64,000 bases of DNA, taken from Escherichia coli (lineage in GTDB: Bacteria; Pseudomonadota; Gammaproteobacteria; Enterobacterales; Enterobacteriaceae). The stretch is taken from NCBI RefSeq assembly GCF_002854065.1, contig NZ_CP024147.1. One strand, 5' to 3'. A model generated the notes under the pieces. That model was not told where the DNA came from. It did not search any database and worked only from the letters and a program-made list of their open reading frames with translations. Numbering within the stretch: the stretch's first letter is position 1; every line of letters starts with the position of its first letter. Shown piece after piece: positions 3,648 to 51,819 of the stretch. Made by a program: the position numbers and the translations under genes.

Positions 3648-4015
3648 TGATGAATAACCACGCTACTGTGCAATCTTCCGCGCCGGTTTCTGCTGCGCCA
3701 CTGCTGCAGGTGAGCGGCGCACTCATCGCCATTATTGCCCTGATCCTCGCTGCTGCCTGGCTGGTAAAACGGTTGGGATTTGCCCCTAAGCGCACAGGCG
3801 TTAACGGTCTGAAAATTAGCGCCAGTGCTTCGCTGGGCGCGCGTGAACGGGTTGTGGTGGTCGATGTGGATGATGCACGGCTGGTGCTCGGCGTTACCGC
3901 AGGGCAAATCAATCTGCTGCATAAACTTCCCCCTTCTGCACCAACGGAAGAGATACCGCAGACCGATTTTCAGTCGGTCATGAAAAATTTGCTTAAGCGT
4001 AGCGGGAGATCCTGA
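3647..4015 (+). CDS. fliO: Flagellar export apparatus protein FliO
   Basis: 122 aa ORF with one transmembrane helix, in operon position between fliN and fliP. Confidence 0.85.
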
Positions 4016-6113: not shown

Positions 6114-6737
6114 ATGTCAACGATTATTATGGATTTATGTAGTTACACCCGACTAGGTTTAACCGGGTATCTGTTGAGTAGAGGGGTTAAAAAAAGAGAA
6201 ATCAACGACATTGAAACCGTTGATGACCTTGCCATAGCTTGTGATTCACAGCGCCCTTCAGTGGTGTTTATTAATGAGGACTGTTTCATCCATGATGCTT
6301 CTAACAGTCAGCACATCAAGCACATCATTAATCAACATCCCAATACGTTATTTATCGTTTTTATGGCAATTGCCAATGTTCATTTTGATGAATATCTATT
6401 GGTCAGAAAAAATTTATTGATCAGTTCTAAATCGATTAAACCGGAATCTCTCGACGATATCCTTGGCGATATTCTGAAAAAAGAGACAACGATAACCTCT
6501 TTTTTAAATATGCCGACGTTATCATTGAGCCGAACCGAATCGAGTATGTTGCGAATGTGGATGGCAGGTCAGGGAACCATTCAAATCTCTGACCAAATGA
6601 ATATCAAAGCCAAGACCGTTTCATCGCATAAAGGTAATATTAAACGTAAGATCAAAACGCATAATAAACAGGTTATCTACCATGTCGTCCGACTGACGGA
6701 TAATGTGACTAATGGTATTTTTGTCAACATGCGCTAA
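6114..6737 (+). CDS. rcsA: Capsule synthesis regulator RcsA (LuxR-type auxiliary regulator)
   Basis: 207 aa ORF recognised as RcsA. Confidence 0.9.
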
Positions 6738-15266: not shown

Positions 15267-15650
15267 TTATTCATAGCGTCTGCTACGTGCGGGACGAGGT
15301 CGGGTGTACCAGGCAATGCTGCCTAACAATGCCCCGACCAGAGCCATAAATAAAAATCCGACCAGTGCCCCTAACCACTTTTCCGCGGTAGAGCCTAAAT
15401 CGCTTTCAAATCCCGACACGGGGGCATCGGGGATCCGGCTAATCACCCAGATGTAACGCGCCATTGCCCAGACGAAATAGCCACACCATGTATAGAAAGC
15501 CCACAAAGCCAGTTTGCCGCCAGGGCTGCGAGAGAGTCTCTCTTCCATCTTTGTCGAACCGTATTCCATTTTGAGATAACCCGGAAAATTCAGACTAAGC
15601 ACTATTATGTGATAAAAGTCACATTTTTCCACATTGAATGAGCCAGTCAA
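15267..15650 (-). CDS. yedR: Inner membrane protein YedR
   Basis: 127 aa ORF with two transmembrane helices; the exact start is uncertain (internal Met possible). Confidence 0.7.
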   Translation of the reverse strand: MTGSFNVEKCDFYHIIVLSLNFPGYLKMEYGSTKMEERLSRSPGGKLALWAFYTWCGYFVWAMARYIWVISRIPDAPVSGFESDLGSTAEKWLGALVGFLFMALVGALLGSIAWYTRPRPARSRRYE

Positions 15651-15860
15651 GACTCAATCATTTTTTGAACAAATAGATAAATTTTGCGCAACGGCAGTGA
15701 ATACAGGAAAAATCGTTTTGAGCGATTTTATTTATCTTTGATATCGGCTTTATTAATTCATTCAATCAATATATTAGCACTGATTACAATTATACCTTTT
15801 TATTATTCTGTGTCATGATGCCTCCGTTATTAGCCTTTTATCGTCTTGTTTATATTTTTT

Positions 15861-15890
15861 GGGCCGGCATGATGCCGGCTTTTTTTTATG
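15861..15890 (+). terminator. Orphan intrinsic-terminator-like hairpin (GGGCCGGCATGATGCCGGC plus T8)
   Basis: Perfect GC-rich stem followed by TTTTTTTT on the plus strand; no plus-strand gene is annotated upstream. Confidence 0.4.
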
Positions 15891-16199
15891 CCTTCATTAA
15901 TGTGCGCGTGATCACACCAGCCGTTTAGCGCATCAATCATTGATACCCCCTATCTTTCCGCTCAACTCATAACATATTGATATGCATTTATAATTTTCAT
16001 GAATATTTATATTTAGAATTCATAATTATGAATTATATTAAATAGATTAGAAACATTTTGAAATCTTTTAAATATATTTGTTACATGTAGTCCTTAAAAT
16101 AAAATGAACTTCATAGAATAGTATCCAAATGTGCTTTTTTTTTGGATAACGGCACTTATTGATATATTCATGAAGATTATAATCACAAGGGAATACATA

Positions 16200-17273
16200 A
16201 TGAAAAGAAAAGTTCTGGCAATGCTGGTCCCGGCGTTATTAGTTGCTGGCGCAGCAAATGCGGCTGAAATTTATAATAAAGATGGCAATAAAGTTGATTT
16301 CTACGGCAAGATGGTTGGCGAACGCATCTGGTCAAATACTGATGATAATAACAGCGAAAACGAAGATACCTCCTATGCTCGTTTCGGTGTTAAAGGTGAA
16401 ACCCAAATCACCAGCGAACTGACTGGTTTTGGTCAGTTTGAATACAACCTCGACGCCAGCAAGCCCGAAGGTGAAAACCAAGAAAAAACCCGTTTAACCT
16501 TCGCCGGTTTGAAATATAACGAGTTAGGATCATTTGACTATGGCCGTAACTACGGTGTTGCTTATGATGCCGCAGCTTATACCGATATGTTAGTTGAATG
16601 GGGTGGCGATTCCTGGGCTTCCGCTGACAACTTCATGAATGGTCGTACCAACGGTGTTGCAACCTACCGTAACTATGATTTCTTTGGCCTGGTTGATGGT
16701 CTTGATTTTGCGATTCAGTACCAAGGCAAAAACAGCAACCGTAGCACTAAGAAACAAAATGGTGACGGCTATGCGTTGTCTGTAGACTATAACATCAATG
16801 GTTTTGGTATCGTTGGTGCATATAGCAAATCTGATCGTACTAATGAACAAGCTAGTGACGGCTACGGTGATAACGCTGAAGTGTGGTCATTAGCAGCCAA
16901 GTATGATGCAAATAATATCTATGCAGCAATGATGTACGGTGAAACCCGCAACATGACCGTTTTGGCTAATGATCATTTTGCAAATAAAACCCAAAACTTT
17001 GAAGCTGTTGTACAGTATCAGTTCGACTTCGGTTTACGTCCGTCTTTAGGCTACGTATATTCCAAAGGCAAAGATCTTTATGCTCGTGATGGACATAAAG
17101 GTGTTGATGCTGACCGCGTAAATTATATCGAAGTTGGTACCTGGTACTACTTCAATAAGAACATGAACGTCTACACAGCATACAAATTCAACATGCTGGA
17201 TAAAGATGACGCCGCCATTACTGGCGCAGCAGCTGATGACCAGTTTGCAGTTGGTATCGTCTACCAGTTCTAA
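16200..17273 (+). CDS. yedS: OmpC/OmpF-family general porin, apparently intact YedS
   Basis: 358 aa from [21 protein letters not shown] (signal peptide), then [16 protein letters not shown]… and C-terminal …VGIVYQF typical of enterobacterial porins; SD AAGGGA upstream. Confidence 0.85.
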
Positions 17274-18822: not shown

Positions 18823-20181
18823 TTAATTTCTTTGCGGTAACGTAATCCGGAACACATTATGCTTATTGAGATAGTGATACGTAGCACTTCCCCCATGCAA
18901 TTCGGCAATCGCTTTGACTAAAGAAAGGCCTAGTCCCTGACCTACGGAATGACGCGAATTATCTCCCCGCCAAAATCTACGGAAGAGTTTTTCAGGCTCA
19001 TTAATTTTCGTTCCAGGGCTGGCGATATCAATATTAAGAGATCCGTTGGTATCAAGAAAACTGGTTATATGAATACGCGATTTTTCTGGTGAATATCTAA
19101 TGGCATTAACAATAAGATTCGATAACATTCGTTGCAGTAAAATTTTATCCGCAAAGATTTGCTGATTGCACTCGACCTTAAAGCAAATCTCTTTCTCGTC
19201 TGAAAGATATTCAAGATAGTCCAACAAATTTTCGACTTCCTTATTGAGAGAAAGCGAGTCCAGTTTCACCAAAACATTGTTTTTATCTGCCCTGGCAAGA
19301 AACAGTATGTTCTCTGTTAACCGCGAAATATTTTCCAGCTCTTCAATGTTACCGGCAATTGTTTTTTGATATTCAGCGATACTTCTGGTTTGACTGAGCG
19401 TAACCTGATTCTGACCCAGTAATGCATTAATTGGCGTTCTAAGTTCATGAGCGAGATCGTCAGCAAACTGACTTAGACGCTCAAAATCTTTGACTAAAGC
19501 ATGATGCATTTTATTCAACGCCTGCCCAAGAGGTTTTAGTTCTCTCGGTAATGCGCTAACCTCAACAGGCTCTCGGCTATCGTTATAATTCAGCGCTTCC
19601 GTTACACCAATCAACTTTTTGATCTCTCGTAACCCCGTTTGGATTAACAGCGGACTTAATACTGAGCACAGTATAATGGCGACAATGCAAATTATAATGC
19701 TATTGATTTTATACTGTTCAAGCATGTTATGTCTGGCTGAAGCCAATTTAGCCACAGTAACCGTTAATGATGGCGAAACTTCATCAATATTAATTCGTAA
19801 AGCATCTATCTCTGTATCATTAATAATGCTTCTGTAAATACCAGCTGCACTGATTGTCTCACTAGCAGGTATGTTATTTAACATGCCATCACTGACATTT
19901 GTCCGGTTAACAATTTTATTGATGCTATCACCATGAATGATCAAGATATCCTGACTAACATCCATCATCCGGTTAAAGTATACAGGTAACGTATCTGGAT
20001 TTACCCCATCAATTAACAACTGCTTGATCTGCGCTGTCCGGTTAATGAGTGTTGTATCATCGCGCCATTTCAACTCACTTGCCAGGCCATTATAGAGAGT
20101 CCAGACAATTCCGGCGCCAGCAACAGACAGCAGCAATATAAAAAGCAAGGTTAAACGGACGGTTATAGATAATCTTTTCAT
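18823..20181 (-). CDS. hprS: Two-component sensor histidine kinase HprS (YedV)
   Basis: 452 aa ORF with two transmembrane segments, HAMP, HisKA (HELRTP) and HATPase domains. Confidence 0.9.
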   Translation of the reverse strand: MKRLSITVRLTLLFILLLSVAGAGIVWTLYNGLASELKWRDDTTLINRTAQIKQLLIDGVNPDTLPVYFNRMMDVSQDILIIHGDSINKIVNRTNVSDGMLNNIPASETISAAGIYRSIINDTEIDALRINIDEVSPSLTVTVAKLASARHNMLEQYKINSIIICIVAIILCSVLSPLLIQTGLREIKKLIGVTEALNYNDSREPVEVSALPRELKPLGQALNKMHHALVKDFERLSQFADDLAHELRTPINALLGQNQVTLSQTRSIAEYQKTIAGNIEELENISRLTENILFLARADKNNVLVKLDSLSLNKEVENLLDYLEYLSDEKEICFKVECNQQIFADKILLQRMLSNLIVNAIRYSPEKSRIHITSFLDTNGSLNIDIASPGTKINEPEKLFRRFWRGDNSRHSVGQGLGLSLVKAIAELHGGSATYHYLNKHNVFRITLPQRN

Positions 20182-20852
20182 TATTTTTTTACCGCTACGA
20201 ATGAATAGCCCATCCCCCGGATTGTAGCGATTAGCTTCTCAGGAAAAGGATCATCAACTTTTGCGCGGAGCCTGCGAATGGCAACATCCACCGTATTGGT
20301 ATCACTATCAAAGTTGATTCCCCAAATTTCACTCGCAATAACCGTTCTGGGTATAATTTCGCCAGCTCTGGAGGCCAGTAGCCAAAGTAACTGAAACTCC
20401 TTGCGCGTCAGTGTAATACTGATATTGTCCCTGCTCACACTTTGACTAACAGAGTCCATTCTTAAGCCGCTGATTTCTAATGTTGAATTCAAAGCGTGAT
20501 GTTGCCTTAATTGTGCCCGAACCCTTGCCAGCAACTCAGAAAATGAAAAAGGTTTTACCAGATAATCATTTGCTCCACTGTCCAGCCCTCTGACTCTGTC
20601 ATCGACAGAATCCCTTGCAGTAAGGCAAATAACAGGGGTTTGCTTTGCCGTTCTTAACGTTTGTAAGATCTGCCAGCCATCCATACCCGGAAGCATAATA
20701 TCCAGAATGATCAATGCATAATCATCCTTCAGCGCAAGATAAAGCCCATCTCTGCCATCAGAAACGGCATCAATGACATAACCCGCTTCGGAAAGCCCCT
20801 GCGTTACCCACTCCTGGGTCCTTTGATTATCTTCAATAAGTAAAATCTTCAT
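20181..20852 (-). CDS. hprR: OmpR-family response regulator HprR (YedW)
   Basis: 223 aa from internal ATG (MKILLIEDN…); receiver plus winged-helix domains; the ORF track start at 20963 is an extension. Confidence 0.9.
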   Translation of the reverse strand: MKILLIEDNQRTQEWVTQGLSEAGYVIDAVSDGRDGLYLALKDDYALIILDIMLPGMDGWQILQTLRTAKQTPVICLTARDSVDDRVRGLDSGANDYLVKPFSFSELLARVRAQLRQHHALNSTLEISGLRMDSVSQSVSRDNISITLTRKEFQLLWLLASRAGEIIPRTVIASEIWGINFDSDTNTVDVAIRRLRAKVDDPFPEKLIATIRGMGYSFVAVKK

Positions 20853-23403: not shown

Positions 23404-24054
23404 TTGGCGATTCGTCTTCACAAACTGGCTGTTGCTTTAGGTGTCTTTATTGTTAGCGTTCCTGCCTTTTCGCATGGTCATCACTCACACGGCAAACCCT
23501 TAACAGAGGTCGAACAAAAAGCTGCTAATGGTGTTTTTGATGATGCCAATGTACAAAACCGAACGCTCAGTGACTGGGATGGAGTCTGGCAATCCGTTTA
23601 TCCTTTACTGCAAAGTGGCAAACTTGACCCCGTCTTTCAGAAGAAAGCGGATGCAGATAAAACTAAAACATTTGCTGAAATTAAAGATTATTATCACAAA
23701 GGTTATGCAACAGATATCGAGATGATTGGCATTGAGGACGGCATTGTTGAATTCCATAGAAATAATGAAACAACATCCTGTAAATATGATTACGATGGAT
23801 ACAAAATACTCACCTATAAATCAGACAAGAAAGGCGTTCGTTACTTATTCGAATGTAAAGATCCTGAAAGCAAAGCCCCTAAATATATACAATTTAGCGA
23901 TCATATAATTGCACCACGAAAATCATCTCATTTTCACATTTTTATGGGTAATGATTCACAGCAATCTTTATTAAATGAAATGGAAAACTGGCCAACGTAT
24001 TATCCATATCAGTTGAGTAGCGAAGAAGTGGTCGAGGAAATGATGTCTCATTGA
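23404..24054 (+). CDS. zinT: Periplasmic zinc/cadmium-binding protein ZinT (YodA)
   Basis: Likely TTG start at 23404, preceded by GGAGG 8 nt upstream, giving a 216 aa product starting with signal peptide (M)[22 protein letters not shown] and the His-rich HGHHSHG; the ATG at 23383 is the alternative. Confidence 0.8.
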
Positions 24055-35230: not shown

Positions 35231-36283
35231 TCATATTCTCGCCAAAACACTTTTTAATGCCTTTGCGAATTCATCCAGACTTATATTGTCAATTTTTTGC
35301 CCAACGACGACTGACTCCGAAACATCGGCCATTGCGGGCCATCGCGTTTTGTAATCAGCATAAATTGCAACAACGGGGGTATTATAGGCACTTGCCATAT
35401 GTAATATTGAGGTGTCAGGAGTTATTGCGATATAAGCATCTTTTATGATTGCTGCTGAACGTTTAATCGAGGGTGATAAGGATAAACGGTAGACATTATT
35501 ATAACAATCCACTAATACCCTGGCTTTATCTTCCCCTTTTGGTCCATGAACGATCACTATTGGTATATCTGTTTCACTTTGAATTTTTTCTATTAGATTT
35601 TCTGCAATCGATAGTGAAAATGTACGATCCTGCGAGCTACCTTCTAAATTAAGCGCAATGTAAGATCCTAACGATCGCATTTCCTCGCGCACCTCATCGA
35701 GTACATCCTCACTTAGTGGCAATTCATATATTGGCCTGACTGCTGGAAAACCCGCCTCACGCATCATAAATGCCCATGTCATGGGTACGGGAGCCCGGAG
35801 ATTCTGATCCATCCGGGACGCGTTCTTACACACAGGGGAATAGCACTTCATGGTTAAACCAACAACCTGAAAATTCGTTTTTGCTTTCAACTGACTGATA
35901 AATAACATCGTTTTCAGGTTCTTTTTACGCATCGCCTCTATACAAAGATCCGGAGTACCGTATTGCTGTGTTATGTTCTTCGCTAAATCTTTTATTTCTT
36001 TTAATGTTGCGTGATCCTGCATAGTCATTGTGACTAATGTTAATTTAGTCTGTTCAAGTTTGAGCGCATTAAAGACTTCTAAATTAATTATCGACGTAAC
36101 AATTAGTAGATGCTTAATTTTATGCAATTCAAGCGCCCGAATAACAGGAAAGATGGCCATAGCATCGCCAATCTGATCGGGAATATGGATGACAACAAAG
36201 TCTGTTTTTTCAATATTGAAATTATAAGCTTTATAATCGTAGTAACTAAATGCAATACGTCTCAACAATGATACTAAAAACAT
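35231..36283 (-). CDS. yeeL: Glycosyltransferase family 9 (heptosyltransferase-like) protein YeeL, apparently intact
   Basis: 351 aa from MFLVSLLRR…; strong SD GGGAGGCGAGG 6 nt upstream of this ATG; GT9 fold features. Confidence 0.75.
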   Translation of the reverse strand: MFLVSLLRRIAFSYYDYKAYNFNIEKTDFVVIHIPDQIGDAMAIFPVIRALELHKIKHLLIVTSIINLEVFNALKLEQTKLTLVTMTMQDHATLKEIKDLAKNITQQYGTPDLCIEAMRKKNLKTMLFISQLKAKTNFQVVGLTMKCYSPVCKNASRMDQNLRAPVPMTWAFMMREAGFPAVRPIYELPLSEDVLDEVREEMRSLGSYIALNLEGSSQDRTFSLSIAENLIEKIQSETDIPIVIVHGPKGEDKARVLVDCYNNVYRLSLSPSIKRSAAIIKDAYIAITPDTSILHMASAYNTPVVAIYADYKTRWPAMADVSESVVVGQKIDNISLDEFAKALKSVLARI

Positions 36284-36597
36284 AACTAACCTCGCCTCCC
36301 TACTGGTTATAATGCAATGCAGTCTATCAGAATCATCAGGGTGCAATTTTGTGCATATGCGGACTTTTATGTTTCATATCTCGAACCTGTGGGTCCTCTG
36401 CTTAATCCTTAAACAACACCAGCAACTCCCGCGCTTTCATCTTCCAGCGAATTTTTCATGTTGCCGCTAATCAGCCATAAAATCATTTGCAGATGCGCTC
36501 TGTCGAGGTAGTCTCATAAGGTTCGTTTATAGATCGACGGCAATGTGAGTTACCTTTTCCATACTAATTATAAAAAGACAGTACAAACAGGATCATT

Positions 36598-38015: not shown

Positions 38016-39470
38016 ATGAATAATAAGGGCTCCGGTCTGACCCCAGCTCAGGCACTGGATAAACTCGACGCGCTGTATGAGCAATCTGTAGTCGCATTAC
38101 GCAACGCCATTGGCAACTATATTACAAGTGGCGAATTACCTGATGAAAACGCCCGCAAACAAGGTCTTTTTGTCTATCCATCTCTGACCGTAACCTGGGA
38201 CGGTAGCACAACCAATCCCCCTAAAACGCGCGCATTTGGTCGTTTTACTCACGCAGGCAGCTACACCACCACGATTACTCGCCCTACTCTCTTTCGTTCG
38301 TATCTCAATGAACAACTTACGTTGCTGTATCAGGATTATGGTGCGCATATCTCGGTGCAACCCTCGCAGCATGAAATCCCTTATCCTTATGTCATCGATG
38401 GCTCTGAATTGACACTTGATCGCTCAATGAGCGCTGGGTTAACTCGCTACTTCCCGACAACAGAACTGGCGCAAATTGGCGATGAAACTGCAGACGGCAT
38501 TTATCATCCAACTGAATTCTCCCCGCTATCGCATTTTGATGCGCGCCGCGTCGATTTTTCCCTCGCACGGTTGCGCCATTATACCGGTACGCCAGTTGAA
38601 CATTTTCAGCCGTTCGTCTTGTTTACCAACTACACACGTTATGTGGATGAATTCGTTCGTTGGGGATGCAGCCAGATCCTCGATCCTGATAGTCCCTACA
38701 TTGCCCTTTCTTGTGCTGGCGGGAACTGGATCACCGCCGAAACCGAAGCGCCAGAAGAAGCCATTTCCGACCTTGCATGGAAAAAACACCAGATGCCAGC
38801 ATGGCATTTAATTACCGCCGATGGTCAGGGTATTACTCTGGTGAATATTGGCGTGGGACCGTCAAATGCTAAAACCATCTGCGATCATCTGGCAGTGCTA
38901 CGCCCGGATGTCTGGTTGATGATTGGTCACTGTGGCGGATTACGTGAAAGTCAGGCCATTGGCGATTATGTACTTGCACACGCTTATTTACGCGATGACC
39001 ACGTTCTTGATGCGGTTCTGCCGCCCGATATTCCTATTCCGAGCATTGCTGAAGTGCAACGTGCGCTTTATGACGCCACCAAGCTGGTGAGCGGCAGGCC
39101 CGGTGAGGAAGTTAAACAGCGGCTACGTACTGGCACTGTAGTAACCACTGATGACAGGAACTGGGAATTACGTTACTCAGCTTCTGCACTTCGTTTTAAC
39201 TTAAGCCGGGCCGTAGCAATTGATATGGAAAGTGCAACCATTGCCGCGCAAGGATATCGTTTCCGCGTGCCATACGGGACACTACTGTGTGTTTCAGATA
39301 AACCGTTGCATGGCGAGATTAAACTTCCCGGCCAGGCTAACCGTTTTTATGAAGGTGCTATTTCCGAACACCTGCAAATTGGCATTAGGGCGATCGATTT
39401 GCTGCGCGCAGAAGGCGACCGACTGCATTCACGTAAATTACGAACCTTTAATGAGCCGCCGTTCCGATAA
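38016..39470 (+). CDS. amn: AMP nucleosidase
   Basis: 484 aa from internal ATG (MNNKGSGLTPAQALDKL…); the ORF track start at 37860 overlaps shiA. Confidence 0.9.
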   Translation: MNNKGSGLTPAQALDKLDALYEQSVVALRNAIGNYITSGELPDENARKQGLFVYPSLTVTWDGSTTNPPKTRAFGRFTHAGSYTTTITRPTLFRSYLNEQLTLLYQDYGAHISVQPSQHEIPYPYVIDGSELTLDRSMSAGLTRYFPTTELAQIGDETADGIYHPTEFSPLSHFDARRVDFSLARLRHYTGTPVEHFQPFVLFTNYTRYVDEFVRWGCSQILDPDSPYIALSCAGGNWITAETEAPEEAISDLAWKKHQMPAWHLITADGQGITLVNIGVGPSNAKTICDHLAVLRPDVWLMIGHCGGLRESQAIGDYVLAHAYLRDDHVLDAVLPPDIPIPSIAEVQRALYDATKLVSGRPGEEVKQRLRTGTVVTTDDRNWELRYSASALRFNLSRAVAIDMESATIAAQGYRFRVPYGTLLCVSDKPLHGEIKLPGQANRFYEGAISEHLQIGIRAIDLLRAEGDRLHSRKLRTFNEPPFR

Positions 39471-39812
39471 TAAGTTCTGAACCTTCTTATCAAAAATAGA
39501 TGTGAAGGATTAAGTAAGACATCTGGCAAATAGCCCGCAATAAACGCGGGCTGTTTGCTTCCTTGGGCGGATACGAGTTTTATTATCGTCTTAATGATTT
39601 CCACATATTAAAAGCAAGTATGCTTTCAAAACACAATTATAAAAAATCCCACCAACAATATAAGTTTTTATAAAATTAAATATAAGATTATGACTTTAGA
39701 ATATTTTTATTTCTAATAGACGAGATTTTTCCTGTTATGATATAATATGCCGAATTAACACATGTTAACGATTTACCAGTAATGTAAATAAATTTTCGAG
39801 GAGATCATTCCA

Positions 39813-40529
39813 GTGGGACGTAAATGGGCCAATATTGTTGCTAAAAAAACGGCTAAAGACGGTGCAACGTCTAAAATTTATGCAAAATTCGGTGTAGAAA
39901 TCTATGCTGCTGCTAAACAAGGTGAACCCGATCCAGAATTAAACACATCTTTAAAATTCGTTATTGAACGTGCAAAACAGGCACAAGTTCCAAAGCACGT
40001 TATTGATAAAGCAATTGATAAAGCCAAAGGCGGCGGAGATGAAACATTCGTGCAGGGCCGTTATGAAGGCTTTGGCCCTAATGGCTCAATGATTATCGCC
40101 GAGACATTGACTTCAAATGTTAACCGTACGATTGCTAACGTTCGCACAATTTTCAATAAAAAAGGCGGCAATATCGGAGCGGCAGGTTCTGTCAGCTATA
40201 TGTTTGACAATACGGGTGTGATTGTATTTAAAGGATCAGACCCTGACCATATTTTTGAAATTTTACTTGAAGCTGAAGTTGATGTTCGTGATGTGACTGA
40301 AGAAGAAGGTAACATTGTTATTTATACTGAACCTACTGACCTTCATAAAGGAATCGCGGCTCTAAAAGCAGCTGGAATCACTGAGTTCTCAACAACAGAA
40401 TTAGAAATGATTGCTCAATCTGAAGTTGAGCTTTCCCCAGAAGATTTAGAAATCTTTGAAGGGCTTGTTGATGCCCTTGAAGATGACGACGATGTACAAA
40501 AAGTTTATCATAACGTCGCAAATCTCTAA
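39813..40529 (+). CDS. yeeN: YebC/PmpR-family transcriptional regulator YeeN
   Basis: 238 aa, GTG start ([13 protein letters not shown]…); conspicuously AT-rich codon usage. Confidence 0.85.
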
Positions 40530-40649
40530 TTATATTTTAAAGAAATCTGTCTTTATGGCAGATTTCTTTAATCTCATATAATCCTTATAAAAAATATAAT
40601 GTTTAACTCGTCATATTGCTTATAAAAAATCCCCGGTAATGACTCCAAC

Positions 40650-41153
40650 TTATTGATAGTGTTTTATGTTCAGATAATGCCCGATGACTTTGTCATGCAG
40701 CTCCACCGATTTTGAGAACGACAGCGACTTCCGTCCCAGCCGTGCCAGGTGCTGCCTCAGATTCAGGTTATGCCGCTCAATTCGCTGCGTATATCGCTTG
40801 CTGATTACGTGCAGCTTTCCCTTCAGGCGGGATTCATACAGCGGCCAGCCATCCGTCATCCATATCACCACGTCAAAGGGTGACAGCAGGCTCATAAGAC
40901 GCCCCAGCGTCGCCATAGTGCGTTCACCGAATACGTGCGCAACAACCGTCTTCCGGAGCCTGTCATACGCGTAAAACAGCCAGCGCTGGCGCGATTTAGC
41001 CCCGACGTATCCCCACTGTTCGTCCATTTCCGCGCAGACGATGACGTCACTGCCCGGCTGTATGCGCGAGGTTACCGACTGCGGCCTGAGTTTTTTAAAT
41101 GGCGGAAAATCGTGTTGAGGCCAACGCCCATAATGCGGGCGGTTGCCCGGCAT
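40650..41153 (-). CDS. insB: IS1 InsB' (expressed as InsAB' transposase by -1 frameshift at the A6C motif)
   Basis: 167 aa ORF recognised as IS1 InsB; an AAAAAAC slippery site (reverse strand) lies in the insA/insB overlap near 41090. Confidence 0.9.
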
Positions 41154-41347
41154 CCAACGCCATTCATGGCCATATCAATGATTTTCTGGTGCGTACCGGG
41201 TTGAGAAGCGGTGTAAGTGAACTGCAGTTGCCATGTTTTACGGCAGTGAGAGCAGAGATAGCGCTGATGTCCGGCAGTGCTTTTGCCGTTACGCACCACC
41301 CCGTCAGTAGCTGAACAGGAGGGACAGCTGATAGAAACAGAAGCCAC
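41072..41347 (-). CDS. insA: IS1 InsA
   Basis: 91 aa ORF ([30 protein letters not shown]…) recognised as IS1 InsA. Confidence 0.9.
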
Positions 41348-41663
41348 TGGAGCACCTCAAAAACACCATCATACACTAAATCAGTAAGTTGGCAGCATCA
41401 CCAAAATCCCCGTTCTCAGAGAAATAATATTTATTAAAATGGCAGGTCTTCTTTTTCTGATTACCGAAGACAAAGTGGCAATTACGTATAGTTTCCCGAT
41501 AAAGACACGACAGCAACATCCCGCATAAGGCATTGTTCTCTTTATCTTTGTACGGTACTTCATGGAACAGAGATTTTGACCTTGCGAATCGTGATGTCTG
41601 TTGGGGGCAATTTGCTCACTGAAGCGTGAGACTCGATTAAACGCACGAAACACAGAAATCAAA

Positions 41664-41700
41664 AAACCCGGCCACTTTTTTACAAAGTGACCGGGTAAAA
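41664..41700 (-). terminator. Terminator hairpin downstream of asnW (bidirectional-looking)
   Basis: CCCGGTCACTTTG…AAAGTGGCCGGG hairpin followed by TTTTTT on the minus strand. Confidence 0.55.
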
Positions 41701-41757
41701 ATAATTTTTATTTTTTAACTGCCTTGAGACTCATAGAGATGTCTCAAAACTAAAATT

Positions 41758-41833
41758 TGGCTCCTCTGACTGGACTCGAACCAGTGACATACGGATTAAC
41801 AGTCCGCCGTTCTACCGACTGAACTACAGAGGA
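41758..41833 (-). tRNA. asnW: tRNA-Asn
   Basis: Reverse complement is identical to the 76-nt asnT sequence; TTGACA-17-TAATAT promoter on the minus strand at 41852-41880. Confidence 0.95.
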
Positions 41834-41933
41834 ATCGTGAGAACGAGGCGAATATTAGCGATGCCCACCCACAATGTCAAAGCCTGTTTTTTAAATTTGA
41901 AATCGTTTGCTGAAATAATCTGCATTTTGTCGT

Positions 41934-43421
41934 TTATTCCGACACAGCTGGCTTTTTTTCACACTTTTGCGGTTCGGGTCGAGGGTATTTCCACAGCCAA
42001 CGTCCAGTAACCATTCGCCAGTAAAACAGCACGGCCCGCACAGCCCAGTCGGCAAACATTCCCATCCAGACACCAACCACACCCCAGCCAAGCATGATGC
42101 CCAGCACATAACCGACGACAACCCGGCAACCCCACATGCTCAACATAGAAACCCACATAGCGTAACGGGCGTCACGAGCCCCCTTAAATCCAGCGGGTAG
42201 CACCCATGAAGCGGACCAAATAGGCATAAATAAAGCATTTAGCCAAACCAGAATCACAACGACATGTTTAACCTGTGGATCCTGGGTGTAAAACGATGCC
42301 ATAACCCCGGCAAAGGGAGCCGTTAGCCAGGCGATGGCCGTTAATCCAAGAGTGGAAAGCCAGAACACATGCCGCAACTGAATCTCTGCTTGCGCTATCT
42401 GCCCTACCCCCAACCTTCGGCCTGTAATGATCGTAGAAGCAGAGCCGAGCGCACTTCCGGGTAAGTTGATAAGAGCCGCAATTGAAAACGCGATAAAATT
42501 TCCGGCAATAACACTGGTCCCCATCCCGGCAACGAACATTTGGGTTAATAACCGACCACTGGTAAATAACACTGATTCGACACTCGCTGGAATACCAATC
42601 CCCATGACTTCCCAGATAATGCTAAAATTCAGCGGTTTAAAATAGCTCTTTAACGAAATCCTTAGCGCAGGATTAAAACCAATCGCCAACACCCACAAAA
42701 TTGCAACTGCGCCAATATAACGAGAAATGGTTAAACCCAACCCAGCCCCGACAAATCCCAGTCCCGGCCAGGAGAAAAGGCCGTAAATCAATATGCCGCT
42801 AATAATAATATTAAGAATATTCAGGCTACCGTTAATCAGTAGCGGTATTTTCGTATTCCCTGCACCACGAAGTGCCCCGCTACCAATTAGAGTGATGGCA
42901 GCTGCTGGATAACTGAGTACCGTCAGCTCCAGATAAGTCAACGCCAGTGCTTTAACTTCTGTCGTGGCATCACCCGCGACGAAATCAATAATTTGCTCGC
43001 CAAAATGATGAATAAGCGTTGCCAACAGTACGGCAAACAACGTCATGATCACCAATGACTGCCGCGTCGCCACCCTCGCTCGTCGTCGATCCCGCTTACC
43101 GAGACTAAATGCCACAACGACAGTAGTACCAAGATCGATAGCAGCAAAAAAAGCCATAATGACCATATTGAAGCTGTCCGCCAATCCCACGCCGGCCATC
43201 GCATCTTTTCCCAGCCAGCTGACCAGAAAAGTGCTCAGAACCCCCATCAACAGGACACAGGCATTCTCCATGAAGATAGGAACAGCAAGCGGGGTTATCT
43301 CGCGCCAGAACAACACTTTGTAGCTCTTGCGTTTAGCGTGCCAGCGAGTGCCGTGAACAACCTGGCGTAAAGCAGAGGAGATATTCAAAGCCGACCTTAA
43401 TTGCAGAAAGTGAAACCACAT
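41934..43421 (-). CDS. yeeO: MATE-family efflux transporter YeeO
   Basis: 495 aa from MWFHFLQLRS…; 12-TM MATE architecture; the ORF track extension to 43577 is probably not translated. Confidence 0.85.
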   Translation of the reverse strand: MWFHFLQLRSALNISSALRQVVHGTRWHAKRKSYKVLFWREITPLAVPIFMENACVLLMGVLSTFLVSWLGKDAMAGVGLADSFNMVIMAFFAAIDLGTTVVVAFSLGKRDRRRARVATRQSLVIMTLFAVLLATLIHHFGEQIIDFVAGDATTEVKALALTYLELTVLSYPAAAITLIGSGALRGAGNTKIPLLINGSLNILNIIISGILIYGLFSWPGLGFVGAGLGLTISRYIGAVAILWVLAIGFNPALRISLKSYFKPLNFSIIWEVMGIGIPASVESVLFTSGRLLTQMFVAGMGTSVIAGNFIAFSIAALINLPGSALGSASTIITGRRLGVGQIAQAEIQLRHVFWLSTLGLTAIAWLTAPFAGVMASFYTQDPQVKHVVVILVWLNALFMPIWSASWVLPAGFKGARDARYAMWVSMLSMWGCRVVVGYVLGIMLGWGVVGVWMGMFADWAVRAVLFYWRMVTGRWLWKYPRPEPQKCEKKPAVSE

Positions 43422-49495: not shown

Positions 49496-50520
49496 ACCGA
49501 CTCCTGATTCAAATGTATGATGGTATTCATTGAACAGAACAATGGATCCCCCACCGTTGCTGACCGCAAAACATTTACGCGATTAATACTGCGCGTAATA
49601 TAATTAAAAATCCAGCATTCTCAATCCATTACGAAATAAGATGGCATTACGGAATAGCCAGACTTTCTCGTGTTAACGTCCGACAAAATGCGTCATTGAC
49701 AGCGGTTTCTGTGGATTGACACATTTCATTCAGATAATGAATTAATGCTACTGCCGGAACAACCAGCAAACGGGCATTGTGTTCTGAAATCCAGGCTATT
49801 GATTCAACGTCAGCGACAGATCTGCGCTGTAAAAGAACTTGTAAAACAACGTAATAGAATTATCCGGAATGGTGGCGACTATGCACTAGAACACCACAAT
49901 TTCGCTCTCTCGGTAAGGCACTGTCACAGCATTCAACAGAATGTGACTTGCCAGATTTATTAGCGCCACCAGATGTTTAACCGGGTAACCACGACCCAGT
50001 CGGGGATATATTCCATCTTCTCGCTGACATCATCAAGAATAAAAAGGTTTATCACACTCAGAGCAACGTTCTTCAGCAGGCGGGATAATTCTTCAACATT
50101 TAGAAGATGTGTTATTAAAGGCATACAAACTGGACGTATTGTATTTTCTTTTGGTGGTTGACCTAAGGTAGCAGTTTATCCTGATGCGCTGAGATTTCTG
50201 TAATATCTACGTCAACATTCTCCTCGAATAGAAAATGCAGCCCCGGCAAGTGATTCACATTTTTTAACAAAACGTTGTTAGCGTGCCATTTTCAGAAGCT
50301 CTCCAAGAAAGCGAATTCTTTTCTCAAATTCTGCATTCTCAGACACAGCTTTCTACTCCATGGTAATGGCCCAAATACGAAGTTGCTCAGGATCATTAGT
50401 GGTGCTGAGAAGTTAAATAACCATGCGGAGTACCACTCGTCATCACGTATTTATATATCATGAAGCTATTGTTGTGTTTTGTACATCAGTAGATATATTC
50501 TGATATACTCCTTTTGCTAG

Positions 50521-51715
<1,195 letters not shown>

Positions 51716-51819
51716 CTAATTTCGATAGGTTCTCAGATGAGAATGATGACGGTGATACACAGATAAGAATCAATGAGCAATGAGGGTTGCCGGGCAACCC
51801 TCATTGAATAAAACAGGAA

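Follow-up and report, generated by a model that had tools for sequence, protein, structure and literature searches.

The yeeN gene of Escherichia coli is very probably a foreign gene, derived from a Lactococcus-like member of the Streptococcaceae as a unit of ~1 kb with its own promoter and terminator, and maintained as a working translation factor whose promoter region is bound by H-NS. Horizontal acquisition, which the earlier note on this DNA had suggested from composition, has strong support from composition, from phylogeny, from gene order in the donor and from the non-homologous sites at which yeeN lies in other enterobacteria.

The window (the whole stretch of DNA analysed here, 64,000 nt, from NZ_CP024147.1) is a segment of the E. 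coli chromosome running from fliK through yeeJ, yeeL, shiA, amn, yeeN, IS1, asnW, yeeO, cbl, nac and cobUST into a prophage. K-12 MG1655 has the same gene order, but lacks IS1 after yeeN. Strain CUWW06 is 99.97–100% identical over most of the window (98.5% in the last 13.5 kb), but the IS insertions differ, so that near-identical strains have unlike IS content: CUWW06 has an additional IS5 between the GT9 gene and shiA (window position 36,286–36,289) and an additional IS1 at the cobU end, both missing from the window, which carries an IS5-like copy at ~50,517–51,719.

Composition of the yeeN locus

The G+C content of yeeN plus its upstream region (39,480–40,529) is 36.6%, whereas the window averages 48.7%. 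A value this low occurs in just 0.67% of 1050-bp windows, the minimum for the 64 kb being in the one that starts at 39,578. The yeeN CDS itself has 39.7% G+C and a GC3 of 0.273, the lowest among the 41 CDS of the window and well below the values for the neighbouring amn (0.457) and shiA (0.514). The striking AT-richness described in the earlier note, and the difference in composition from these two neighbours, are therefore confirmed. AAA, GAA, ATT and TTA, the codons said to dominate the gene, make up 24% of yeeN codons versus 11.5% in other window genes, although TTA contributes only five. CTG (0 of 13 Leu codons), CCG and ACC are absent. The Karlin codon bias of yeeN against the other window genes (B 0.49) is the highest among genes of at least 200 aa, and is slightly lower against a Lactococcus gene pool (B 0.42), a modest preference that counts as weak evidence.

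Of the two measures by which the earlier note proposed to check itself, G+C content is far outside the local range, but the codon adaptation index (CAI; Sharp-Li weights, with yebC, 0.64, as a sanity check) is not low: at 0.344, yeeN is among the higher-scoring genes of the window, above amn (0.29) and shiA (0.24), so that codon adaptation alone would miss yeeN as foreign. The donor-type A/T-ending codons favoured in yeeN (GAA, AAA, GTT, GCT and CGT among them) are largely also optimal in E. coli.

The amn-yeeN spacer (39,474–39,812; 339 bp) has 30.1% G+C, at the 0.55th percentile, and its core (39,590–39,812; 223 bp) 24.2%. The earlier description of ~330 bp of extremely AT-rich DNA upstream of yeeN thus fits the spacer overall and its core, but not the first ~90 bp, which are not AT-rich because the G+C-rich amn terminator lies there. 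Other low-G+C patches are found at 15,584–16,300, 6,114–6,737 (rcsA), 18,823–20,852 (hprSR), 23,404–24,054 (zinT) and 35,231–36,283 (a yeeL-like GT9 gene). G+C content is 0.38–0.40 in rcsA, hprS, zinT and the family-9 glycosyltransferase gene, and the 339-bp window of lowest G+C content (26.5%) starts at 15,962, ahead of a porin gene.

Organization of the amn-yeeN-asnW interval

The features identified between amn and asnW are listed in Table 1. Counterparts of the yeeN cassette are found, each time in chromosomal surroundings different from those here, in Citrobacter, Superficieibacter, Kluyvera, Raoultella, Salmonella and another Escherichia. In the preceding spacer (39,560–39,650) no homology to the other enterobacterial yeeN loci examined was detected, and an extension of cassette homology upstream of 39,651 was not supported. 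In an Rfam search of 39,300–42,000 tRNA-Asn alone reached the gathering score; matches to Thr and Trp leaders correspond simply to the amn terminator.

Table 1 Features of the amn-yeeN-asnW interval and of related enterobacterial loci. Positions are those of the window unless a locus (L) is named.
Feature	Position	Strand	Details
amn, AMP nucleosidase, native upstream neighbour	38016..39470	+	GC 0.50, GC3 0.457
amn intrinsic terminator hairpin, GCCCGC stem	39525..39559	+	-25.7 kcal/mol, z -4.5
AT-rich spacer, ending in left TTATAAAAAATCCC repeat (39637-39650)	39560..39650		homology search
yeeN cassette, common to other enterobacterial yeeN loci	39651..40633	+	strong homology from 39701, weak but collinear from 39651
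Sigma-70 promoter TAGACG-N18-TATAAT, extended -10 TG at 39738-39739	39717..39746	+	14 enterobacterial copies
yeeN 5' UTR (start inferred from -10 position)	39753..39812	+	Shine-Dalgarno GAGGAG, 39798-39803
5' UTR stem-loop	39758-39780; L004-L016, ~3940-3965 (e.g. L008, 3948-3964)
yeeN CDS, GTG start, 238 aa, YebC_II-type TACO1/YebC protein	39813..40529	+	domain and homology searches
yeeN terminator hairpin, 13-bp perfect arms	40537..40571	+	-20.2 kcal/mol, z -7.7; homologous to terminator after L. taiwanensis yeeN
Right copy of 14-nt direct repeat TTATAAAAAATCCC, at end of shared cassette	40620..40633		reads TTATACCCCCCC in K-12
IS1, 768 bp, insA and insB'	40635..41402	-	23-nt terminal inverted repeats, 9-bp target duplication
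asnW, tRNA-Asn, convergent with yeeN	41758..41833	-	IS1 between 3' ends of yeeN and asnW
Hydrophobic ORF upstream of promoter	L004, 3724-3792; L008, 3726-3806; L010, 3729-3791; L013, 3679-3795; L015, 3737-3793

The IS1 noted earlier just downstream of yeeN is intact, lies 105 bp past the gene and is flanked by a 9-bp target duplication (AAAATCCCC; 40,626–40,634 and 41,403–41,411) that overlaps the right copy of TTATAAAAAATCCC. Its length, terminal inverted repeats, insA/insB' with programmed frameshift and duplication of 9 bp in AT-rich DNA are all known features of IS1, and nothing about it is unusual: it is a strain-variable insertion between convergent genes. At least 80% of a query spanning the IS1 junction is present in some 227 of the 5426 complete E. 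coli genomes. IS1 presumably inserted later, in a minority lineage, into AT-rich DNA past the terminator, leaving yeeN untouched.

YeeN protein

YeeN belongs to the TACO1/YebC family, subfamily YebC_II. It matches Pfam PF20772 (89.7 bits, cutoff 36) and PF01709 (174.6 bits, cutoff 27) over residues 3–235, and NCBIfam NF009044 (PRK12378 subfamily; 352 bits, cutoff 196), while its score for the YebC_I equivalog NF001030 (240.4 bits) is just under the cutoff of 243. In these full-length domain matches it resembles other YebC_II proteins (S. pyogenes YebC; B. subtilis YebC2/YeeI), from which YeeN differs in having a gammaproteobacterial host that also has a native YebC_I. S. pyogenes YebC, studied as a polyproline anti-stalling factor, is ~79% identical to YeeN. 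E. coli YebC (YebC_I, PDB 1KON) shares the fold family and is the best match by sequence among solved structures (E 3.8e-45), but is only 39–41% identical to YeeN and its gene has a CAI of 0.64 versus 0.34. yebC and yeeN are not recent duplicates; their common ancestor is older than the YebC_I/YebC_II split.

YebC_II proteins are expected to bind the ribosome near the peptidyl-transferase centre and to relieve polyproline stalling. In the PURE system, stalling on pentaproline is partly relieved by purified E. coli YeeN, though YebC does this more efficiently, and a Y84A mutant was inactive in the same study, which used E. coli YeeN itself (PMC12234827); Tyr84 is present in YeeN of the window (RYEGFGP). 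YeeN also improves the incorporation of amino acids with an altered backbone (PMC12234827, PMC13284719). In Salmonella, yeeN is not redundant with efp (PMC12234827).

The gene is under strong purifying selection and fixed in E. coli rather than decaying: dN/dS is 0.02–0.09 against every other copy in a set of 16 enterobacterial copies, and yeeN occupies this site beside amn in 99.5% of complete E. coli genomes (5399 of 5426).

Relationship to Streptococcaceae

A scan of species-representative genomes identified a YeeN in Lactococcus taiwanensis that is 93% identical to E. coli YeeN, within the range of enterobacterial copies (90–95% in Citrobacter, Superficieibacter, Kluyvera, Shimwellia and a Raoultella MAG). 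In a large-database search, L. kimchii (89%), L. termiticola (84%) and S. pyogenes/S. equi (~79%) came directly after the enterobacterial matches. Identity is 84–85% to the L. garvieae group, 57–61% to Bacillus/Listeria and 44–47% to YebC_II of Vibrio/Pseudoalteromonas.

In trees of this one 238-aa protein (neighbour-joining, Kimura distance, custom bootstrap with 200 replicates, two taxon sets), YeeN groups with Streptococcaceae, Listeria and Bacillus, far from YebC. The enterobacterial sequences are monophyletic (85% and 100% bootstrap in the two taxon sets) and nested (98%) in a subset of Lactococcus made up of the L. garvieae group, L. taiwanensis, L. kimchii, L. termiticola and L. fujiensis; this larger clade itself lies inside the Streptococcaceae (96%). 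Placement as sister to L. taiwanensis specifically is weakly supported (31% bootstrap). The comparison with YebC homologues proposed in the earlier note thus bears out its suggestion of a horizontal origin.

In 16 Streptococcaceae loci the G+C content of yeeN equals that of its flanks, whereas in all of 15 enterobacterial loci it is 5–15 points lower (0.38–0.44 vs 0.45–0.59), which indicates transfer from the former group to the latter. One conserved housekeeping gene order surrounds yeeN in both L. taiwanensis and L. kimchii (nadD-yqeK-GNAT-rsfS-methyltransferase-tmcAL-yeeN-GyrI-like-ung), and in one Citrobacter (L008) a remnant of the GyrI-like N-terminus follows yeeN (tblastn 4e-7). A corresponding remnant beyond IS1 in E. 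coli was not supported (alignment to the Citrobacter locus, p ~0.056; nothing by tblastn). At the nucleotide level E. coli and L. taiwanensis are homologous (82% identity) from just before the start codon through the terminator hairpin, and the AAATTTTCGA-GGAG segment ahead of the start has a Lactococcus counterpart. The start codon is GTG in all enterobacterial copies and ATG in all Streptococcaceae copies, and this shared GTG is consistent with a single entry into the Enterobacteriaceae. Synonymous sites are near saturation between the Lactococcus and E. coli copies (dS ~1.4), which limits how closely donor and date can be placed.

It is scarcely credible that yeeN is instead an old, vertically inherited paralogue of yebC, kept AT-rich by selection (e.g. 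for H-NS binding or expression level). A CAI in the normal range, core status in E. coli and strong purifying selection would all fit such a history, but 93% identity to Lactococcus, against 44–47% to gammaproteobacterial YebC_II and ~40% to YebC, would not, nor would the nesting of the enterobacterial clade in Lactococcus with 96–98% support, a promoter and terminator common to Streptococcaceae, or the non-homologous yeeN sites in E. coli, Salmonella, Citrobacter, Kluyvera and others. Transfer in the reverse direction, from Enterobacteriaceae into the L. taiwanensis/L. kimchii lineage, or contamination of the Lactococcus assemblies, is very improbable, although L. taiwanensis YeeN is as close to E. 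coli YeeN as are some enterobacterial copies. Contamination is ruled out by the limited nucleotide identity and the dS given above. Against reverse transfer, yeeN matches the G+C content of its Lactococcus flanks and not of its enterobacterial flanks, the Lactococcus copies have the conserved housekeeping gene order around them, in contigs of 0.37 and 2.1 Mb, the enterobacterial clade is surrounded by Lactococcus and Streptococcus lineages of increasing distance, and S. pyogenes encodes only the YebC_II subtype (PMC12234827).

On the most probable reading, an ancestor within the Enterobacteriaceae acquired yeeN from a Lactococcus-like donor as a ~1-kb unit complete with intrinsic terminator, Gram-positive-style promoter (TAGACG-N18-TGaTATAAT), 5' UTR and Shine-Dalgarno sequence, and the low G+C content, GC3 above all, is a donor signature, shifted only slightly toward the host. 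In E. coli the unit lies between the amn terminator and asnW and is fixed in the species. YeeN would act as a YebC_II-type ribosome-associated factor that relieves stalls at polyproline and other slow peptide bonds, as published in vitro work on E. coli YeeN shows, and strong purifying selection keeps it beside the native paralogue YebC (YebC_I).

Location of yeeN in other Enterobacteriaceae

Among Enterobacteriaceae, yeeN is found in at least eight different, non-homologous contexts that have only ~0.9–1.1 kb of DNA in common, and at the other enterobacterial loci yeeN is never adjacent to amn, shiA, yeeO or a tRNA. A divergent Escherichia (L003; NZ_JAATUR010000009.1, labelled E. coli SCPM-O-B-8794) has yeeN in the icd-pdeG interval. 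With flanks only 81–94% identical to E. coli, this strain probably represents a cryptic lineage of the genus and not E. coli itself. In E. coli the same interval has undergone rearrangement (IS1, ymgC), and comparison with it as the empty site gave no clean junction. In one Citrobacter yeeN is downstream of arsC. In Salmonella it corresponds to STM4499 (LT2), within STM4498-4505 and not beside amn, and is therefore not a positional orthologue of E. coli yeeN; the literature treats both as the same gene. In Salmonella Infantis SARB27, yeeN (L088, 6,115–6,831) is between yjhP-like STM4500 and STM4498, adjoining type IIS restriction genes.

Synonymous divergence from E. coli yeeN is 0.29 for Citrobacter sp. 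R56, 0.46 for Salmonella and 0.50 for the other Escherichia, and that between Salmonella and Citrobacter R56 is 0.14. The genome-wide average between E. coli and Salmonella is around 0.9. Enterobacterial yeeN dS values are star-like (0.14–0.66) and do not follow host relationships, which suggests that yeeN, once imported, went on to move from genus to genus.

A perfect 14-nt direct repeat (TTATAAAAAATCCC; P ~0.0005 by shuffling) flanks the cassette in the strain analysed, and homology to other loci starts right after its left copy (Table 1). No comparable direct repeats were found at other enterobacterial yeeN loci, and the cassette ends have neither visible terminal inverted repeats nor, by eye, an integron core site. 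The repeat could be an insertion scar or chance, and hints at insertion via an att-like or microhomology core (TTATAAAAAAT). Searches for a plasmid or phage that might carry the cassette were negative, the only close matches being chromosomes or contigs mislabelled as plasmid or phage: several PLSDB 'plasmid' records of 1–5 Mb and a 501-kb Salmonella contig in a phage collection are chromosomal and give no evidence of mobility. That the ~1-kb unit (promoter, structured 5' UTR, gene, terminator) is a self-contained single-gene cassette, repeatedly relocated or re-acquired among Enterobacteriaceae with no linked mobility gene, is a tentative and rather unlikely reading.

Promoter region and H-NS binding

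The promoter, whose extended -10 is close to consensus, is nearly invariant, TG included, in all 14 aligned enterobacterial upstream regions, and the promoter of the window is exactly the published yeeN promoter, TAGACG-18-TATAAT, which carries an HNS flag and is listed as constitutive for RpoD holoenzyme (Shimada et al., PMC3946193). In most copies (Citrobacter, Superficieibacter, Kluyvera, Raoultella) the 5' UTR includes a stem-loop of 7–8 bp (GCAGGTT-ATT-AACCTGC), with compensatory changes in four of eight pairs and 87% of cells paired, versus 23–47% when the partners are slid. This stem is degenerate in E. coli, where the UTR folds no better than shuffled sequences. No Rfam family matches the conserved upstream segment or stem-loop of the other enterobacterial loci; the conserved stem-loop could be an mRNA-stabilising or regulatory element.

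In cassettes from enterobacteria other than E. coli, the promoter is preceded by ~150 bp of additional conserved DNA that the E. coli copy lacks and that contains a recurrent hydrophobic ORF of 18–38 codons (e.g. LPGLLLLILLSYLLLLLRQC; Table 1), reminiscent of a type I toxin. This segment also had no match in Rfam.

The amn/yeeN spacer is itself one of 78 K-12 'promoter islands' (Panyukov and Ozoline 2013), bound by H-NS in the Kahramanoglou and Oshima datasets (code K; PMC3661553, Table 1) and tied to adjoining genes predicted as foreign by IslandViewer, GIST, Nakamura 2004, Lawrence and Ochman 1998 and Price 2008 (PMC3661553). By coordinate conversion the published island would correspond to ~39,569–39,942 in the window. 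The AT tract fits an H-NS target, with 24–30% G+C over 220–340 bp. A scan of the window for the H-NS motif TCGATAAATT was uninformative, with 90 matches versus 74 ± 10 expected, those near the promoter all having two mismatches. yeeN differs from other promoter islands in having one dominant, donor-inherited promoter conserved across genera rather than a post-transfer promoter cluster, and from other H-NS-bound acquired AT-rich genes in being under strong purifying selection.

The silencing by H-NS considered possible in the earlier note would, in its strictest form, make yeeN a transcriptionally silent, H-NS-repressed passenger in E. coli. This seems improbable, even though published ChIP data place H-NS over the spacer, the promoter-island class is reported to yield little full-length RNA (PMC3661553) and deletion of Salmonella yeeN had no growth phenotype (PMC12234827). 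The low dN/dS and 99.5% retention argue for regular use, and neither the near-invariant extended -10 promoter, listed as constitutive for RpoD (PMC3946193), nor the activity of E. coli YeeN as a translation factor in vitro (PMC12234827, PMC13284719) is expected of a silent gene. Because a strong promoter is conserved and the gene is under purifying selection, H-NS probably dampens the imported yeeN promoter rather than abolishing expression, i.e. acts as a modulator and not a full silencer.

Implications

The description of yeeN as AT-rich, atypical, probably foreign and H-NS-bound is correct and already published. A literature search combining YebC, YeeN and Lactococcus found no paper, and the Lactococcus donor and multi-site ~1-kb cassette may be undescribed details, refinements of a known kind of event rather than a novel type of system.

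YeeN has lately drawn attention as the second translation factor of YebC type that E. coli and Salmonella possess, and comparisons between the paralogues are affected by its origin, as YeeN is essentially a Lactococcus/Streptococcus protein (93% identity to L. taiwanensis, ~79% to the mechanism-defining YebC of S. pyogenes). E. coli YebC and YeeN would thus represent a native factor plus a selected Gram-positive import, not a local duplication. This import may explain the functional divergence of YebC and YeeN and the non-redundancy of YeeN and EF-P, and yeeN would provide a clean textbook case of a foreign gene that arrives with a host-functional promoter, then overlaid by H-NS.
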